From positions 1-43,558 of the forward strand of contig JBBTRS010000034.1 of assembly GCA_038065115.1 (NCBI GenBank): 43,558 nucleotides of DNA. Reading direction: 5' to 3'. The notes under the pieces are model-generated. The model saw only the letters and a list, made by a program, of their open reading frames with translations. It made no database searches and was not told the origin of the DNA. Source of the stretch: Patescibacteria group bacterium (GTDB taxonomy: Bacteria > Patescibacteriota > Minisyncoccia > UBA6257 > MFKM01). Both the position numbers and the translations under genes were made by a program. Shown here piece by piece: positions 181 to 34,786 of this stretch. The stretch's first letter is position 1. The number at the start of each line of letters is the position of its first letter.

Positions 181-324
181 AAAAGGCAGGTAGATGAGCA
201 CTCACTAACTAAAACAAAAAACGGAGGTCACCACTACCTGCCCCCACACCAATTAAGGATTGGTTGCTAAAGGCAACGCAATAAGACGGGGTAGATCCTT
301 GATTGGTGTGGGGGCCTGCCTTTT
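181..324 (+). other. structured intergenic element between the divergent pilin-like gene and murB (candidate murB leader, ncRNA or repeat)
   Basis: AAAAGGCAGG (181-190) is the exact reverse complement of CCTGCCTTTT (315-324). GGCAGGTAG (185-193) also pairs perfectly with CTACCTGCC (234-242). Positions 240-260 pair with 295-315 as a 21-bp helix with one G-U. A TATACT -10-like box at 173-178 would start transcription at about the first base of the element. Track ORFs 253..462(-) and 339..557(-) are rejected here. Confidence 0.4.
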
Positions 325-333
325 CCATATGCT

Positions 334-1287
334 ATGTTTCAAAAAAATGTTCTTCTCAAAAACCATACTAGTTTTAAAATCGGCGGACCGGCAAAATATT
401 TTTTTGAAGCTAAAAACTTTAAAGATCTGGTAAAAGCGGTCAAAGAAGCCAAACAAAAACAAATTCCGTTTTTTATTTTAGGCGGGGGGACTAAATTATT
501 AGTTAACGACAAAGGATTTAACGGCTTAATCATTAAAATAAAAAGTTCGGGATTCAAGATTCAAGAAAATAAAATCATCAGCGAAGCGGGAGTCAGTTTA
601 GCCCGATTAGTGATTGCTTCAATCAAGGCTAATTTAACCGGATTGGAATGGGCGATTGAAATCCCCGGCACCGTTGGCGGCGCCGTTCACGGTAATTGCG
701 GAGCCTTCGGATCTTCTCTTTCAAAAATAGTAAAAAACATCGTCGTCTTTAACCCCGACAGTTTTAAAATAAAAACTTATTCCAATAAACAATGTGAATT
801 CAAATATCGCGGCAGTGTTTTTTCCGCCCATAACGAATCCGCCTCGGGCGAAAAACCCAATCGGGATATTATCCTCTCGGCGGAACTGCGGCTAAAAAAA
901 GGAAATCCTAAAAAAAGCTTAGCCGTGATAAAAGAATATTTAAAAAGAAGACGGGAGAGAATTTCCCCTTATCCCTCGGCGGGCAGTATCTTCAAAAATT
1001 ATGAATTGAAAAGCGTAAATTACGAGAACGACCCTTTGGTTAAAAAATTTCCGGAATTAGAAAAACTGATTAAGGGCGACAAAATTCCGGTTGCTTATTT
1101 AATTGAAAAATGCGGATTAAAAGGCAAAAAAATCGGCGGAGCGAAAATCTCCGAAAAACAAGCCAACATCATCGTTAATTTCAACAAAGCCAAGGCCGAG
1201 AACGTTTCTGCTTTGATTGATTTAGCCAAAAAAAAAGTTAAAAAAAAATTCAGAATTGTTTTAGAAGAAGAAGTGATTATGGTATAA
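334..1287 (+). CDS. murB: UDP-N-acetylenolpyruvoylglucosamine reductase
   Basis: 317 aa. It has an FAD-binding N-terminus (FKIGGPAKYFFEAKN..PFFILGGGTKLLVNDKGFNGLIIKI) and a MurB C-terminal domain (SAGSIFKN, CGLKGKKIGGAKISEKQANIIVN). Confidence 0.93.
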   Translation: MFQKNVLLKNHTSFKIGGPAKYFFEAKNFKDLVKAVKEAKQKQIPFFILGGGTKLLVNDKGFNGLIIKIKSSGFKIQENKIISEAGVSLARLVIASIKANLTGLEWAIEIPGTVGGAVHGNCGAFGSSLSKIVKNIVVFNPDSFKIKTYSNKQCEFKYRGSVFSAHNESASGEKPNRDIILSAELRLKKGNPKKSLAVIKEYLKRRRERISPYPSAGSIFKNYELKSVNYENDPLVKKFPELEKLIKGDKIPVAYLIEKCGLKGKKIGGAKISEKQANIIVNFNKAKAENVSALIDLAKKKVKKKFRIVLEEEVIMV

Positions 1288-1288
1288 T
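1280..1288 (+). promoter_or_regulatory. extended -10 box TGGTATAAT
   Basis: TGGTATAAT overlaps the murB stop codon. The expected transcription start, about 7 nt downstream, falls on the first bases (ATG, 1295-1297) of the repeat element upstream of hpf. Confidence 0.4.
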
Positions 1289-1297
1289 GAAACTATG

Positions 1298-1449
1298 CCC
1301 AGTAGTCCTGCCTGCCGGCAGGCAGGGAAAACTCGATTTGATTCGCCAAAGGCGAATCAGGGTTTTCTAAAAAACTGAGCAAAAACAAAAAGCAATGATT
1401 ATTAAAAGGTCAAATTATTCTAAATAATTATCGAGTTTCTACTACTGGG
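1298..1449 (+). repeat. TATG-bounded structured repeat, subfamily A, copy A1 (MITE-like element or cis-acting leader)
   Basis: It starts CCCAGTAGT and ends ACTACTGGG, and is flanked by TATG at 1294-1297 and 1450-1453. It is about 88% identical to copy A2 (26162-26291), apart from a 20-nt insertion at 1307-1326. The right-hand ATG (1451) is the hpf start codon. Confidence 0.85.
1307..1326. repeat. 20-nt perfect palindrome CCTGCCTGCCGGCAGGCAGG nested in repeat copy A1
   Basis: It is absent from the otherwise collinear copy A2 (CAGTAGT^GAAAAC is contiguous there). An identical 20-mer is present at 11904-11923 inside a tRNA T-stem. Confidence 0.85.
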
Positions 1450-1450
1450 T

Positions 1451-1795
1451 ATGAAAATCAATATTAAAGCTTCAAATTTGGATTTAACGCCGGCCCTCAA
1501 TCAATACATAGAAGAAAAAGTCGGCTCGCTGTCCAAATTTTTAAAAAAATACGAAATGGAAGGGGATCTTAATGCCCAGGTTGAAGTCGCGCGGACTACT
1601 CGGCATCACCACCAAGGCGACGTTTTTCGGGCAGAAATCAATTTAACGTTGCCCAAAAAAGTCTTAAGAGGCGTTGCCGAAAAAAACGATATCAGGATAG
1701 CCATTGATGAAGTCAAAAACGAATTACAACGGGAGATCGTAAAATACAAAGAACTTTCTCAAGACTTTAGAGCCGACCGGAAAAGAAAAATTTAA
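1451..1795 (+). CDS. hpf: ribosome hibernation promoting factor (short HPF/RaiA family)
   Basis: 114 aa. MKINIKASNLDLTPALNQYIEEKV is the typical HPF/YfiA N-terminus. Confidence 0.9.
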   Translation: MKINIKASNLDLTPALNQYIEEKVGSLSKFLKKYEMEGDLNAQVEVARTTRHHHQGDVFRAEINLTLPKKVLRGVAEKNDIRIAIDEVKNELQREIVKYKELSQDFRADRKRKI

Positions 1796-11860: not shown

Positions 11861-11903
11861 CATCGGTATCTCTAACAGGGTAAACAAGTCGCGAGTTCGA
11901 ATC

Positions 11904-11923
11904 CCTGCCTGCCGGCAGGCAGG
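11904..11923. repeat. 20-nt perfect palindrome CCTGCCTGCCGGCAGGCAGG inserted in a tRNA T-stem
   Basis: It is identical to 1307-1326. Removing it restores GCGAG/CTCGC T-stem pairing. Confidence 0.8.
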
Positions 11924-11938
11924 TCGCCTCCGGCTCAT

Positions 11939-12331
11939 TTAAAAATTCATTCCCAAATAAGGCAAAAAGATAAGAAAACCGATAATCGCCGCTCCCAAAG
12001 AAACTAAAAGCACGATAGCGGCAATAAGGTCTTTTATTTTTTTGACGCGGGGATCTTCAGCCGGCTGAAGAAAATCCAAAAAACGCTCCATTGCCGAATT
12101 GATAAGTTCCAAAATAAGCACCGAGAAAATCATTGCCAAAAGAACCGCTTTCTCGGTTCGGCTGGTCGGGAAATAAAGCATAGCCCCAATTGTTATGGCC
12201 GCCAGCAACAGCATATACTTGAATGACGGTTCCTGGACAAGAACCGTTTTCATGCCTTTCCACGCGGTCCGAAAACTCAAAAAGATATTTTTTCTGCTTT
12301 TAAGAAAAGCGATCATTGTTAAAACCTTCAA
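11939..12331 (-). CDS. dgkA: diacylglycerol kinase / undecaprenol kinase family protein
   Basis: 130 aa with three TM segments. The prokaryotic DAGK motif ELINSAMERFLDFL is present. Confidence 0.85.
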   Translation of the reverse strand: MKVLTMIAFLKSRKNIFLSFRTAWKGMKTVLVQEPSFKYMLLLAAITIGAMLYFPTSRTEKAVLLAMIFSVLILELINSAMERFLDFLQPAEDPRVKKIKDLIAAIVLLVSLGAAIIGFLIFLPYLGMNF

Positions 12332-12378
12332 TAAATTTTTATTTGTTTTGAAATAAGAGTATAATGCTATTATATATG

Positions 12379-12527
12379 CCCAGTAGTGAGCCCGCGATTG
12401 CTTCAGTTTAATTTATCTCGCGGCTTTTAGCTGGACGATAGATCGATTATAACAAATTAAAGTCAAATAAACAAATCAGAACCGCGATAAACTGAAGATA
12501 AATTAATATCGCGGGTCTACTACTGGG
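12379..12527 (+). repeat. TATG-bounded structured repeat, subfamily B, copy B1
   Basis: The sequence runs CCCAGTAGTGAGCCCGCGAT...ATCGCGGGTCTACTACTGGG. It is flanked by TATG at 12375-12378 and 12528-12531. It is homologous to 26011-26157. The right-hand ATG (12529) is the prfB start codon. Confidence 0.85.
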
Positions 12528-12528
12528 T

Positions 12529-13230
12529 ATGATCAATCAAAATACGGCAATTATTTCTGTCTACGCCGGCGTCGGGGGAGAAGACGCCAAAGATTGGGTG
12601 GAAATGCTCTTGAGGATGTATCAAAAATACGCCCAACAAAATAATTGGAAAGTCCGGTCAATCAACAATCATACATCGGAAATAATCGGGGAAAACGCTT
12701 ACGGCCTGCTTAAAAACGAATCCGGAGTTCATCGTTTAATCAGAATTTCTCCGTTTGACGCCAAAAAACTTCGCCATACTTCTTTTGCTTTGGTTGAAGC
12801 TCTGCCGGAACTGCCGGAATTAGAAGAAAAAAAATTGGTTATTCCCGATGAAGATTTAAGAATAGAACTTTGCCGTTCCAGCGGTCCGGGCGGTCAAAAT
12901 GTCAATAAAAGAGAAACCGCGGTCAGGATTATTCATTTGCCGACCGGTTTAACCGCCGCTTCGCAGGCTGAACGCTCCCAAGCTCAAAACCGAGAATTAG
13001 CGTTAAAATTGCTAAAATCAAAACTTTTTAAATTAATGACTGAACGCCAGGAAAAAGAACTAAGCAATCTTCGGACTAAAATAACCCCCGATTGGGGCCA
13101 TCAAATACGCTCCTATGTGCTTCATCCTTATCAAATGGTCAAAGACCACCGCACCGGAGTTAAAACCAGCAATACTGAAGCGGTTTTAGAGGGAAATCTT
13201 GATAAATTCATCAAAAAATCTATAATATAA
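12529..13230 (+). CDS. prfB: peptide chain release factor 2, short form lacking N-terminal domain 1
   Basis: 233 aa. It has the SPF stop-recognition tripeptide (RISPFD) and the GGQ motif (SSGPGGQNVNK). It begins at the equivalent of the domain 2 start (IISVYAGVGGEDAKDW). Confidence 0.85.
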   Translation: MINQNTAIISVYAGVGGEDAKDWVEMLLRMYQKYAQQNNWKVRSINNHTSEIIGENAYGLLKNESGVHRLIRISPFDAKKLRHTSFALVEALPELPELEEKKLVIPDEDLRIELCRSSGPGGQNVNKRETAVRIIHLPTGLTAASQAERSQAQNRELALKLLKSKLFKLMTERQEKELSNLRTKITPDWGHQIRSYVLHPYQMVKDHRTGVKTSNTEAVLEGNLDKFIKKSII

Positions 13231-24788: not shown

Positions 24789-26003
24789 ATGGAAATTAAA
24801 AAAATCTTTAATAAAAACTCTGGTTCAATTATCGGGCTGGTGTTAACAGTCGGCATTTTTTATTTTTTAGGATTTCAAAGCGGTTTCCAAGAAGCGAAAA
24901 CAAAAGTTATTTACAAAGATAACCCGGAGATTGCCGCTGATTTTTCTTTATTTTGGAGCGCGTGGGAAGCTTTTAAGCAAAATTACGTTCATAATAAAAA
25001 CCTGACCGATCAGGAAATGCTTTACGGAGCGATTGCCGGAATGGTTGGTTCGGCTAAAGACCCTTATTCGGTTTTTTTTAAGCCCAGCGATGCTCAAAAA
25101 TTTGAAGAAGACATAAGCGGTAATTTTGGAGGAATCGGCGCCGAAATTGCCATTCGCGACAGCCAGTTAATGATCGTGGCTCCTCTCAAGGACACCCCGG
25201 CTGAACGCGCCGGATTGAAGAGCGGAGACAAGATTTTAAAGATTAACGATGTTTCAAGCGATACCTTAACCGCGGTTGAAGAAGCGGTAAAGTTAATTAG
25301 AGGGCCGAAGGGAACATCCGTTGTTCTTATGATTTCAAGAAAAGACTGGGAATCGTCCAAGGAATTTTCTATCATTAGAGACAATATATCCGTTCCGACT
25401 CTTGATTGGGAGATGAAGCCGGACAAAATCGCCTATATTCATCTTTATAATTTTAATGAAAACGCTCCCTTGGCTTTTTACAAAGCGGCGCTTCCGGCTA
25501 TTTTGGGCGGGGCTCGGGGAGTAATTTTAGATCTTCGCAATAATCCCGGCGGTTATCTTGAAGTGGCGATTGACCTTGCCGGCTGGTTTTTGGAAAACGG
25601 CGATGTCGTGGTTAAAGAAGAGTTCGGTTCCGACAGACAAGAAGTTCTGAAAGCTGAAGGCAATAGCGCTTTGGTTGATTTGCCAACGGTAATTTTAGTG
25701 AATCAGGGCTCGGCTTCGGCTTCTGAAATCTTAGCCGGCGCTTTAAGAGATAATCGCCAAATTAAAATAATCGGCGAAACTACTTTTGGCAAAGGCACTG
25801 TTCAAGAATTGAAAAAATTCAGCGACGGTTCCGAAATGAAAGTTTCAGTGGCGCAATGGCTTTTGCCTAACGGCGATACGATTGACAAGATAGGAATAAC
25901 GCCCGATATTGAAGTTGAATTAACCGAAGATGACGCTAAAGCCGAACGCGATCCGCAATTAGACAAAGCTTTGGAATTTTTAAAAACCGAAATTAATAAA
26001 TAA
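24789..26003 (+). CDS. carboxyl-terminal processing protease (S41 family)
   Basis: It has a PDZ domain (GIGAEI...AERAGLKSGDKILKIND), the S41 catalytic region (NPGGYL, GSASASEILAGAL) and the TFGKG motif. The ATG at 24789 (MEIKKIF) is preferred over the TTG at 24747. Confidence 0.88.
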   Translation: MEIKKIFNKNSGSIIGLVLTVGIFYFLGFQSGFQEAKTKVIYKDNPEIAADFSLFWSAWEAFKQNYVHNKNLTDQEMLYGAIAGMVGSAKDPYSVFFKPSDAQKFEEDISGNFGGIGAEIAIRDSQLMIVAPLKDTPAERAGLKSGDKILKINDVSSDTLTAVEEAVKLIRGPKGTSVVLMISRKDWESSKEFSIIRDNISVPTLDWEMKPDKIAYIHLYNFNENAPLAFYKAALPAILGGARGVILDLRNNPGGYLEVAIDLAGWFLENGDVVVKEEFGSDRQEVLKAEGNSALVDLPTVILVNQGSASASEILAGALRDNRQIKIIGETTFGKGTVQELKKFSDGSEMKVSVAQWLLPNGDTIDKIGITPDIEVELTEDDAKAERDPQLDKALEFLKTEINK

Positions 26004-26010
26004 TCTTATG

Positions 26011-26157
26011 CCCAGTAGTGAGCCCGCGATTGCTTTAGCTCAATTTATCGCGGGGCTTTCAACTGGGAAATAAATCCATTATTATTAACAAGTCAAATTA
26101 ATAAATCAGAGTCGCGATGAGCTAAAGATAAATTGCTATCGCGGGTCTACTACTGGG
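26011..26157 (+). repeat. TATG-bounded structured repeat, subfamily B, copy B2
   Basis: The termini are the same as in B1. It is flanked by TATG at 26007-26010 and 26158-26161. It starts 8 nt after the stop codon of the protease gene. Confidence 0.85.
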
Positions 26158-26161
26158 TATG

Positions 26162-26291
26162 CCCAGTAGTGAAAACTCGATTTGATTCGCCTTTGGCGAA
26201 TCAGGGTTTTCTAAAACTAAGCAAAAACAAAAAACAATGATTATCAAAAGGTCGTATTATTTCAAATAATTATCGAGTTTCTACTACTGGG
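26162..26291 (+). repeat. TATG-bounded structured repeat, subfamily A, copy A2 (tandem with B2)
   Basis: It shares the middle TATG (26158-26161) with B2. The right TATG is at 26292-26295, and its ATG (26293) is the rplI start codon. Confidence 0.85.
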
Positions 26292-26292
26292 T

Positions 26293-26733
26293 ATGAAAAT
26301 AATCTTATTAAACGATATTAAGGGGTTAGGTAAAAAATTTGAGGTTAAAGAAGTTAAGGATGGATACGCTAAAAATTTTTTAATGCCTCGCAATTTGGCC
26401 AAAATGGCAAATAAAACCAATCTTGGGATTTTGGCTCAACAAAAAGCCGTCTGGGAACGCCAAGAAAAAGAAATTATTGATGGTCTTGAAAAAAATGCCG
26501 AACAGCTTAAGGAAGTTGTTTTGGATTTCCCTCTTAAATCGGGAGAGAACGGGCAAGTTTTTGGCTCGGTTAGCGCTTTGGAAATTAAAAAAGCCCTTGA
26601 AAATTTAGGCTATAAAGACTTTGAAGTGTTTTTAGAAAAACCCATAAAGGAATTGGGAGAGTGCTTGGTGGAAATTGATCTGGGAAAGGGACTTAAATCA
26701 AAAGTCAAAATTAGAGCACATTCACAATCTTAA
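26293..26733 (+). CDS. rplI: 50S ribosomal protein L9
   Basis: 146 aa. MKIILLNDIKGLGKKFEVKEVKDGYAKNFL is the canonical L9 N-terminus. Confidence 0.93.
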   Translation: MKIILLNDIKGLGKKFEVKEVKDGYAKNFLMPRNLAKMANKTNLGILAQQKAVWERQEKEIIDGLEKNAEQLKEVVLDFPLKSGENGQVFGSVSALEIKKALENLGYKDFEVFLEKPIKELGECLVEIDLGKGLKSKVKIRAHSQS

Positions 26734-27902: not shown

Positions 27903-27934
27903 CCCCGTAGTAAAACTTTTACTACGGGGTTTTT
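27903..27934 (+). terminator. strong intrinsic terminator
   Basis: CCCCGTAGTAAAA (27903-27915) pairs with TTTTACTACGGGG (27917-27929), followed by TTTTT. Confidence 0.8.
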
Positions 27935-28067
27935 ATTAAAAAGGCTTTGCGGAAAAGTTTTTACTACGGGGCTTGCGGGCCTTTTTATTTTTAAATCAGT
28001 TTATAGCCATACAACAAATCAAGCTTGTCCGGGAAAATATCCCGCAGGCTATGTTATAATTAATCCA

Positions 28068-33359: not shown

Positions 33360-33415
33360 GAATTTAGAATTTAGAAAATAGAATCTAGAATAAAACCTAG
33401 AATTAAAATAGGAAT

Positions 33416-34786
33416 ATGAAAGATAAATTTTTAAACAAAAAGAAGCTAAATCCTACTTTCTACTTTCTATTTTCTAAATTTTTTTTCATCATTCTACTTT
33501 CTACTTTCTATTTTCTATTTTCTATCGTTCACGCCGCCACCTCCCAAGAATTAAAAAATGAAATCAATCAAAAAAGCGCCGAGCTTCAGCAGATTGAAAC
33601 CGAGCGTCAGCAAATTTTAGACAACCTCAAGGAATTGGACAAGGAAAGCCTTACTCTTCAAAAAGATATTAAAAAAAATGAGTATCAGATTAATCAATTA
33701 AATCTAACCATAAAATCAAGCCGGATTAATATTGAAAAGCTTGGCTTGGAAATCAAATCTTTGGAATATGAAATTAAAAACATTGAAGACAAATCGGGCC
33801 TTAAAAAAGAAGCTATTGTTAAATTGCTAAGAGAGCTCCAGGAGAAAGAGAATGAAAACCTGCTGACTATTTTTTTAAGGAATAAAAGTCTCGCTGAAAG
33901 CGTTTTCGAAACCCAAGAACTTCTTGATTTTAATAACGGTTTAACTCTGGAAGTGGCTGATTTGCGGCGACTTCACGAAGAGCGTTCTCAGAAATTTGAC
34001 GAAATTTCCGTGAGCAAACAAGAACAAGAATCGGAAAATTATAATTTACGAAACCGAAAATTGATAGTGGAAGAACAAAAAACCGAACGGCGGAATCTTT
34101 TGGCGTTAAACAAAAAACAAGAAAAAAATTATCAGCAAAGGATTGAGGAATTGGAAAAACAACAGGCCGAAATTAATACGGAAATCGAAGAAATTGAAGT
34201 TGAATTACGGAAGAGAATAGATCCCACGGTTTTGCCGATACCTCGGCCCGGGGTTTTAGCGATACCCATTAAATTTGATTTAGTTAAAAATTTAACTCAA
34301 GGGTACGGCGCAACGAAGTTTGCCCAGTCGGCTTACAGCAGTAAATTCCACAACGGCATTGATATCGGAGCGCCTATGGGAACGCCCGTTTTAGCGGCGG
34401 AAAATGGCCGGGTGACGGCGGTAGAAAATACCGATTCTTACTGTCCTTCTGTCTGGTACGGCCGAAAAAAATACGGGGGTTCCTATGGAAAATATATTGT
34501 CATTAAACACGAAAATAATCTCTCAACGTTATATTCTCATCTTTCTTTGTCAACCGTAAAAATTGGCGATACGGTGAACAGGGGAGATGTCATCGGTTAC
34601 GTCGGCAATACCGGTTTTTCAACCGGCCCCCATCTTCATTTCACCGTTTACGCTAACATTTACAGCGCCGGAGAGAGATTATTATCTCCGGAAATAAAAA
34701 ATAGCGTTCACTGCGGCCCCCAGCCGTATGGAGCAACGATGAATCCTCTTGATTATGTCGCGGCGGGGCTTTCAGCCGGACGATAA
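33416..34786 (+). CDS. M23 family metallopeptidase with long coiled coil (EnvC/PcsB-like)
   Basis: 456 aa. A signal or anchor sequence is followed by about 230 aa of coiled coil and the M23 motifs HNGIDIGAP and GPHLHF. Confidence 0.88.
   Translation: MKDKFLNKKKLNPTFYFLFSKFFFIILLSTFYFLFSIVHAATSQELKNEINQKSAELQQIETERQQILDNLKELDKESLTLQKDIKKNEYQINQLNLTIKSSRINIEKLGLEIKSLEYEIKNIEDKSGLKKEAIVKLLRELQEKENENLLTIFLRNKSLAESVFETQELLDFNNGLTLEVADLRRLHEERSQKFDEISVSKQEQESENYNLRNRKLIVEEQKTERRNLLALNKKQEKNYQQRIEELEKQQAEINTEIEEIEVELRKRIDPTVLPIPRPGVLAIPIKFDLVKNLTQGYGATKFAQSAYSSKFHNGIDIGAPMGTPVLAAENGRVTAVENTDSYCPSVWYGRKKYGGSYGKYIVIKHENNLSTLYSHLSLSTVKIGDTVNRGDVIGYVGNTGFSTGPHLHFTVYANIYSAGERLLSPEIKNSVHCGPQPYGATMNPLDYVAAGLSAGR

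Follow-up and report, generated by a model that had tools for sequence, protein, structure and literature searches.

Several families of short bacterial repeats resemble the elements described here. The Correia elements of Neisseria (NEMIS/CREE) and the ERIC/IRU elements of enterobacteria are, like the present ones, non-coding MITEs of 100–150 bp with terminal inverted repeats, which occur in dozens of dispersed copies beside or within transcription units and form long hairpins in mRNA. Correia and ERIC elements alter promoter activity and are cut by RNase III or RNase E, and to our knowledge neither Correia nor ERIC/IRU elements have been reported on start codons or as regenerating them. The Rickettsia palindromic elements (RPE) offer a further likeness, as small palindromic mobile repeats of reduced genomes that leave essential genes functional. 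RPE, however, lie in frame inside coding regions and are translated, whereas the present elements sit directly upstream of the first codon and contain stops.

The repeats analysed here share no sequence similarity with Correia or ERIC elements and come from a different host phylum. Whereas Correia elements duplicate TA and have 26-bp termini, the present elements show a 4-bp duplication and unrelated termini. In our reading, to which we assign a probability of roughly 80%, they form a superfamily of non-autonomous DNA transposons (MITEs) that had not been described before and is restricted to Patescibacteria (CPR).

Repeats at gene starts in the window

The window, i.e. the whole 43.5-kb stretch of DNA that was analysed, had been predicted to contain four structured repeats of two types, A and B, each bounded by TATG. 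All four were found at the same positions, 130–152 nt in length and with TATG on both flanks of each, and all lie on the plus strand. Copy A1 (1298–1449) precedes hpf (HPF/YfiA; 1451–1795, plus strand) and is flanked by TATG at 1294–1297 and 1450–1453. Copy B1 (12379–12527), flanked by TATG at 12375–12378 and 12528–12531, precedes a gene for an RF2 homologue (12529–13230, plus strand), and copies B2 (26011–26157) and A2 (26162–26291) form a tandem pair upstream of rplI (L9; 26293–26733, plus strand), B2 being bounded by TATG at 26007–26010 and 26158–26161 and A2 by TATG at 26158–26161 and 26292–26295. Since the middle TATG is common to B2 and A2, the same target appears to have been hit a second time.

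In line with the prediction, the right-hand ATG is a real gene start at all three loci. The domains of the encoded proteins begin at residues 1–4, with Pfam Ribosomal_S30AE and NCBIfam yfiA matching HPF/YfiA from residue 1 and Pfam Ribosomal_L9_N matching L9 from residue 1, in addition to the NCBIfam L9 model. The gene that had been named prfB indeed encodes an RF2 homologue starting at the right-hand ATG, but this protein matches the prfB model at positions 114–352 of 353 and is therefore without domain 1, the N-terminal ~113 residues of RF2 being missing. Orthologues of the truncated gene in relatives start at the same residue, so the truncation is a lineage trait and was not caused by the insertion.

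The terminal 9-mer CCCAGTAGT occurs eight times exactly in the window, as four inward-facing pairs, and 13 times with at most one mismatch (2.3 expected; 13 reached in 0 of 100 shuffles). Besides the four predicted copies there are two more related ones, namely a member of a third related family with termini CCCCCACACCAAT... at 241–314, flanked by CCTG duplications at 237–240 and 315–318, and a degenerate copy of the CCCCGTAGT branch at 27903–27971, which has one left end and two right ends and is flanked by CTTA and CTTG.

Folding of the four copies gave predicted minimum free energies of −49 to −61 kcal/mol (z −6.9 to −9.2), and the predicted folds pair the flanking UAUGs in each copy, placing the start-codon AUG within the foot of the helix as originally proposed. 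The terminal stem consists of 4 flank pairs, 10 pairs, a fixed A.C mismatch and 9 pairs, and thus spans exactly 20 element positions, not the ~23 bp that had been estimated. Two further details of the original prediction need correction. Copy A1 does not begin with CCCAGTAGTGA, because a 20-nt perfect palindrome, CCTGCCTGCCGGCAGGCAGG (1307–1326), is inserted after CCCAGTAGT within its left terminus and is not present in A2. The same 20-mer is also found at 11904–11923 of the window and in loci L011, L078 (same position inside the MITE terminus) and L187. Moreover, A- and B-type copies have more in common than their ~13-nt termini, as both carry CGAT at positions 17–20 and an internal AAGTCRAAT motif.

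Target-site duplications, empty sites and the wider family

We searched one genome per prokaryotic species with the pattern CCCAGTAGTGA-N(100-130)-TCTACTACTGGG, in which TATG was not required, and at least 115 further loci across many Patescibacteria lineages matched it. The listed matches lie nearly all in MAGs labelled Saccharibacteria, Parcubacteria-group lineages (Jorgensen-, Zambryski-, Moran-, Buchanan-, Taylor-, Wolfe-, Azam- and Doudnabacteria), Curtissbacteria or 'Patescibacteria', and a few carry the labels Gammaproteobacteria or Bdellovibrionales, these being database labels as given. The window itself belongs to an assembly from Hainich groundwater. With a size of 123–152 nt and short, non-conserved reading frames only, the copies are small, multi-copy and non-coding, as are MITEs. 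No match to the element was obtained in viral contigs by an exact-pattern scan or in plasmids and phages by blastn, and searching the literature for the topic and for the terminal sequences yielded no relevant paper on these repeats.

Comparing the flanks of the 116 further copies listed showed that they are direct duplications of variable sequence, with more than 20 different 4-mers. TATG accounts for 37–43 copies, CATA for 14 and TCAA for 5, and TTTA, CAGG, CTTG, CACA and others occur as well. The duplication measures 4 bp in 85 of these copies, 3 bp in 11 and 5 bp in 3. Insertion accordingly duplicates 3–5 bp, mostly 4, of the target, and the TATG pair around each copy in the window is this target-site duplication (TSD). 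If the element inserts into the (T)ATG of a gene, the start codon is regenerated by the right-hand TSD copy and the gene stays intact. The spread of 3–5 bp is wider than usual for one DDE enzyme and counts against the MITE explanation.

Loci around SecA relatives, in which the murB-hpf-secA order is conserved, allowed us to compare orthologous sites with and without the element. In the closest relatives, L118, L119 and L125, the hpf site is empty and reads ...TGGTATAATCAAAAGTATGAAA... with a single ATG. Upstream of the left ATG copy of A1 lies the extended −10 box TGGTATAAT (1280–1288, plus strand), which ends 7 nt before this ATG and is the leaderless-type promoter of hpf. The original prediction had noted a TATAAT-type box at this place, and it is retained in the empty-site relatives at the same distance from their single ATG; in several other relatives, a −10 box lies 5–7 nt upstream of the hpf start. 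At prfB, too, L187 and L149 carry no element at the start codon.

Related genomes contain 3 copies in 1.0 Mb, compared to 4 in the 43.5-kb window, so the distribution is patchy. B1 and B2, from the same genome, are 82% identical, whereas B-type copies of different genomes share ~60% identity, which, judged from these sequences, fits recent spread within the genome. Certain sites were hit repeatedly: rplI twice in the window and also in L084, the hpf and prfB starts in the window and, by a variant family, in L121 (at the prfB start codon itself), and, upstream of murB, a CCTG site that holds a different family in each of three genomes (the third family in the window, the B type with two copies in L118 and a variant family in L121). 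A copy in L002 is placed between tRNAs, with the 3' end of tRNA-Tyr being rebuilt by the CCCA of the element.

Variable duplicated flanks, an empty hpf site and dispersed, patchy copies bear out one of the two readings originally proposed, a MITE-like element with a TATG target duplication. Its sub-variant, an element that inserts 3' of TATG and itself ends in TATG, can be rejected, as the flanking repeat varies even within one subfamily. An autonomous element or transposase with these termini was found neither in the window nor in the 1.86 Mb of loci examined. Long inverted-terminus pairs that had been considered as autonomous elements turned out to be pairs of separate MITEs (e.g. L077, 4841–5942). 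Recurrent protein clusters near the copies resembled pilus/secretion and housekeeping proteins on sequence inspection, with nothing transposase-like among them, and the proteins of the window are housekeeping throughout.

Constraint on the termini

Imperfect terminal inverted repeats of 20 bp are present in all 119 copies analysed (those listed plus the window). Positions 1–9 (CCCAGTAGT) are constant, as the search pattern itself required. At positions 10 and 11 the two ends always differ, with G facing T and A facing C, respectively; the pattern fixed these positions too, and the same asymmetry was seen in copies recovered without that requirement (L071, L104, L127 and L077). Positions 13–20, in turn, vary between subfamilies, yet are 92–100% Watson-Crick complementary between the two ends of a copy, and pairing drops to the random level of ~24% from position 21 on. 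Among the stem mismatches of the 119 copies, G.T (8) was not favoured over A.C (12) or transversion pairs (14). This lack of G-U preference points to a constraint on DNA, not on RNA, and on the sequence patterns the simplest reading is that the termini form a bipartite 20-bp inverted repeat bound as DNA.

Some features may nevertheless reflect selection on a folded single strand. About 37% of the start-codon copies have a GC-rich hairpin, variable in sequence, beside the upstream terminus and at that end only, and a further covarying helix is kept in B-type copies. When mixed subfamilies were aligned, RNAalifold recovered the terminal stem alone, which is explained by MAFFT not registering the small hairpins. 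In addition, the inner 8 bp differ between subfamilies that share one genome, which is awkward for a single sequence-specific transposase and would agree with an enzyme that recognises a folded single strand.

A single-strand DNA hairpin element moved by an HUH/Y1 enzyme (an IS200/IS605-derived PATE, or REP/REPIN-like), inserting 3' of the tetranucleotide in which it ends, would explain why the inner stem stays complementary despite sequence variation. A fixed internal mismatch, the subterminal hairpin of many copies, a GTAG within the terminus and the partly subfamily-specific flank sequence and orientation also agree with such an element. The flanking repeat, however, is present on both sides and varies within single subfamilies, with 15 different flanking 4-mers in the GAAAACTCGA group, and the ends form a 20-bp inverted repeat instead of same-strand hairpins. 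Given also that G.T is not enriched among the mismatches and that no tnpA or RAYT-like gene was seen in the window, we consider an HUH/Y1 origin highly improbable.

The second reading of the original prediction was a cis-acting leader RNA dedicated to ribosome and translation-factor genes, acting by start-codon sequestration or by processing. All three loci of the window are indeed translation-related, the AUG is paired in the predicted folds, and of the first 40 downstream genes elsewhere, roughly a quarter likewise have a role in translation, according to our reading of their sequences (20 confirmed by Pfam); this is perhaps twice the share of such genes in a CPR genome. Among these and further downstream genes are rpsL, rpsE, rpsP, rplY, tuf, frr, obg and tsaD. 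Most downstream genes, however, are unrelated to translation and also include cell division, metabolism and secretion (mreB, ftsZ, tpiA, yidC, ATP synthase a, POR, RNase H, a lexA-like gene, rubrerythrin and a nucleotidyltransferase), and ~40% of the listed copies do not lie at start codons at all. A leader RNA is also at odds with flanks that are target duplications, with the empty orthologous site, with interiors that are not conserved between subfamilies and with the lack of a G-U preference in the stem. Rfam at gathering scores gave four tRNA matches in the window, none at the repeats, and a permissive scan of 25950–26350 gave chance-level matches only. Together, these observations make a dedicated leader RNA the least probable of the explanations considered, and very improbable in itself.

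Start-codon association and its source

The original prediction had judged the placement of the window's copies on start codons to be non-random, and this holds for the whole family and for two sister families. In the copies listed plus those of the window, 68 of 119 (57%) lie exactly on a start ATG by a strict criterion, i.e. an ATG-containing duplication that starts a downstream ORF, and 79 (66%) by a loose one. For the TATG/CATA-flanked copies listed, 55 of 57 were interpretable, and all 55 are at start codons; nine of the TATG/CATA-flanked copies seemed to lie inside a maximal ORF, and each of these is in frame. Start codons make up 31% of the non-CDS TATG sites according to crude gene calls, which gives p=6e-19 for the association, and p stays below 1e-12 at a conservative ceiling of ~60% that we allowed for gene-calling error. 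None of the ~40 intergenic non-start copies listed has a TATG duplication, so the enzyme does not simply prefer the word TATG. These analyses show statistically that target sequence together with loss of intragenic insertions cannot account for the start-codon excess. Candidate intragenic copies that would have needed RNA splicing (L087, L086, L074 and L011) proved to be start codons or spurious ORFs.

The starts themselves have distinctive surroundings. A motif resembling a Shine-Dalgarno sequence precedes 12.6% of gene starts compared to a background of 12.1%, i.e. there is no Shine-Dalgarno signal in these genomes, and T is found at position −1 in 52% of starts. A leaderless arrangement, with a −10 hexamer ending 6–9 nt before the ATG, is seen at 32% of the targeted starts as compared to 13% of the other starts (p=2e-4) and 3% of ATGs overall. 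With no Shine-Dalgarno signal and many leaderless genes, the ATG is often also the transcription start. As a recognisable leaderless promoter is present at only about a third of the targeted starts, targeting of transcription starts cannot be the full explanation.

Site choice also depends on the branch of the family. The sister families TCCCGTTAGA... and TCCCACACATAA... occur at start codons only, where they duplicate TGAA or TGG (gene positions +2 to +5) and the terminal A of the element rebuilds the ATG; their register is thus +2..+5, as opposed to −1..+3 in the main family. Another sister branch, CCCCGTTAG..., sits at TTTA, TAAA, TTCA and CTTG sites away from starts, and a subfamily with the inner terminus GAATTTTSGG prefers GTCAA. 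Branch-dependent site choice and a fixed register per family argue for the insertion machinery over a general survival filter.

Such a filter is the main competitor for the source of the bias. Here, the same MITE would insert essentially at random, and copies abutting an ATG would have been kept through co-option, in that cleavage at the hairpin foot yields a leaderless mRNA, translation of the frame from the left ATG melts the hairpin, or the element serves as a mobile terminator-plus-promoter cassette. In its favour, interior features follow gene direction: the GC hairpin lies at the upstream end of 25 copies and at the downstream end of 7, and the CTGGG motif of the interior runs along the gene in 26 copies and against it in 1. 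The frame from the left ATG copy, which encodes MPSSE/R..., is the most open one, with a median of 17 codons compared to 10 and 1 in the other frames, and A-type copies contain a terminator-like hairpin. Copies also precede the essential genes rpsL, tuf and ftsZ, the expression of which they therefore cannot abolish, and RNase III is reported to be retained in CPR (PMC12641178). Orientation, judged separately from the terminal asymmetry, has a ratio of 43:14 (p=1.5e-4) and is subfamily-specific. The element itself cannot be read through in frame, since it contains stop codons and its copies have lengths not divisible by three.

Retention alone, however, fits other observations less well. Terminal decay is equal in start-codon and non-start copies, which gives no support for start-codon copies as older survivors. 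Each family keeps one fixed register although other registers would preserve the ATG too, the sister branch occupies non-start sites in the same genomes, and the enrichment that retention would have to produce is ~100-fold. A fixed-position outward promoter was not detected in the right end, where −10-like hexamers showed no positional peak. We therefore regard random insertion followed by co-option as quite possible, if somewhat short of probable, and lean slightly towards insertion preference over pure retention as the main source of the bias.

Under the preferred explanation, the transposase would insert mainly at translation or transcription start sites, and selection would then sharpen the pattern. 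Since initiation in these genomes does not appear to need an upstream Shine-Dalgarno sequence, the targeted genes would stay expressed. In read-through transcripts the AUG would lie at the foot of the hairpin, and this obstacle might be overcome by translation of the MPSSE/R... frame from the left ATG, by RNA cutting or by a subfamily-specific internal promoter. A more specific version, in which the promoter open complex or some other mark of the start site, for instance, guides the transposase to the gene's +1/ATG and the hairpin is then removed or melted in the RNA so that the 5' end is again AUG-proximal, is tentative and, taken as a whole, unlikely.

If this is true, the element would be at once a start-codon-specific parasite and a ready-made translational control module. 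In the literature searched, we found no report of such a precise start-codon association for bacterial transposons. Mechanistic targeting would amount to a new mode of target choice, and if the pattern stems from retention instead, the hairpins would be a recurrently recruited device of translation control. CPR represent a large share of bacterial diversity, and their mobile elements and translation start are poorly known. Elements inserted in this way provide a natural experiment on gene expression without Shine-Dalgarno sequences, a MITE superfamily across the radiation could serve as a marker for gene flow between lineages, and in annotation the repeats mark true start codons.

With regard to the mobilizing enzyme, a 4-bp duplication, CC(C)...(G)GG ends and slightly asymmetric termini recall DDE transposons of the piggyBac/IS1380 type, a likeness that we take as a lead only. 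The present repeats do have 4-bp duplications and CC.../...GG ends, features that are not specific to that family, but piggyBac needs TTAA, whereas here the duplicated 4-mer varies and no transposase was found. Concerning the fate of the transcript, a structured element abutting the AUG could be cut to yield a leaderless mRNA, similar to tRNA punctuation and the t-elements of organelle transcripts; this likeness is purely functional, as the present elements are without a tRNA-like fold. For the start-codon precision, the nearest functional analogy is Ty3, which inserts with nucleotide precision at RNA polymerase III start sites that are set by the expression machinery and not by a simple DNA word. 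Ty3, in contrast, is a eukaryotic LTR retroelement tethered by TFIIIB/TFIIIC, and a leaderless promoter is found at only ~1/3 of the targets of the present elements. In sequence, host range and start-codon precision, the repeats described here differ from Correia, ERIC and piggyBac/IS1380 elements.

Initiation signals and start-codon insertion by sister families

At the gene starts of the window and of loci L001-L115, which come from a search of one genome per prokaryotic species for the main MITE family (at least 115 matches), a Shine-Dalgarno signal was absent (12.6% compared to a background of 12.1%). A T preceded 52% of these starts at position -1, and many -10 boxes were located 5-7 nt 5' of the ATG, some of them within the 3' end of the preceding gene (murB/hpf). 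Judged from these sequence signals, leaderless or Shine-Dalgarno-independent initiation seems to be the norm. The only RF2-like gene observed, at window 12529-13230, is missing domain 1 (~113 N-terminal residues) and scores 318 bits, below the prfB cut-off of 370 bits; its start position is the same in the relatives L121, L187, and L149.

Two sister MITE families, TCCCGTTAGA (L003, L018, L059, L061, L079, and L175) and TCCCACACATAA (L159/L161), were found exclusively at start codons at these loci, with TGAA or TGG as the target-site duplication. Here, the A of the regenerated ATG is supplied by the last base of the element.

Small inverted repeats and a tRNA-like fragment

The exact 20-nt perfect palindrome CCTGCCTGCCGGCAGGCAGG recurs across different CPR genomes, with copies at window 1307-1326 and 11904-11923, L011 315-334, L078 5811-5830, and L187 20319-20338, and near-variants at about ten further loci. 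It interrupts the MITE terminus at the identical position in two genomes (window, copy A1 at the hpf start, and L078), and is also hosted by the T-arm of tRNA 3' fragments (window and L187). Based on its sequence and distribution, the palindrome looks like a separate, tiny mobile element. The window fragment that it splits (11862-11940), which comprises a tRNA-like T-arm and acceptor 3' strand immediately 3' of tRNA-Thr(CGT), may be the remnant of an integration event.

A generic inverted-repeat scan additionally returned a 16-nt AT-rich inverted repeat, TAGAAAATAGAATCTA, with AATT flanks at window 33372-33516, spanning the end of the gltX gap and reaching into the beginning of the M23 peptidase ORF (33416). 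Its arms match at 13 of 16 positions, and it may reflect chance or another small repeat.

A hairpin sequence upstream of murB

Upstream of murB, a hairpin-closed sequence of ~58 nt, GGCAGGTAG...CTACCTGCC with a T-run, is located at window 187-242, directly preceded by the promoter-like TGTTATACT. By eye, it is ~90% conserved in the related-genome loci L118 and L121, whose MurB proteins share just 60-70% identity with that of the window. The sequence had no match in Rfam and, on these features, may be an unrecognized small RNA or leader. Its 3' foot is the CCTG insertion hot spot, a site occupied by three different MITE families.

Host range and copies at other sites

Several of the matches listed come from MAGs that carry a Gammaproteobacteria or Bdellovibrionales label (e.g. 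L002, L004, L020, L036, L039-L041, L047, and L064). Their elements resemble those of Patescibacteria-labelled MAGs, as exemplified by L084 with the same terminal inverted repeat type before an L9-like gene; either these labels may be wrong, or the MITE family may extend past CPR.

In L002, a copy at 506-638 with the duplication CAGG lies between tRNA-Thr and tRNA-Tyr. Because the terminal CCCA of the element restores the acceptor stem of tRNA-Tyr at its 3' end, this gene is still called intact. Two oppositely oriented copies in L077 (4841-4936 and 5808-5942), both with the duplication TCAA, flank a single 243-aa gene in an arrangement resembling a composite transposon.
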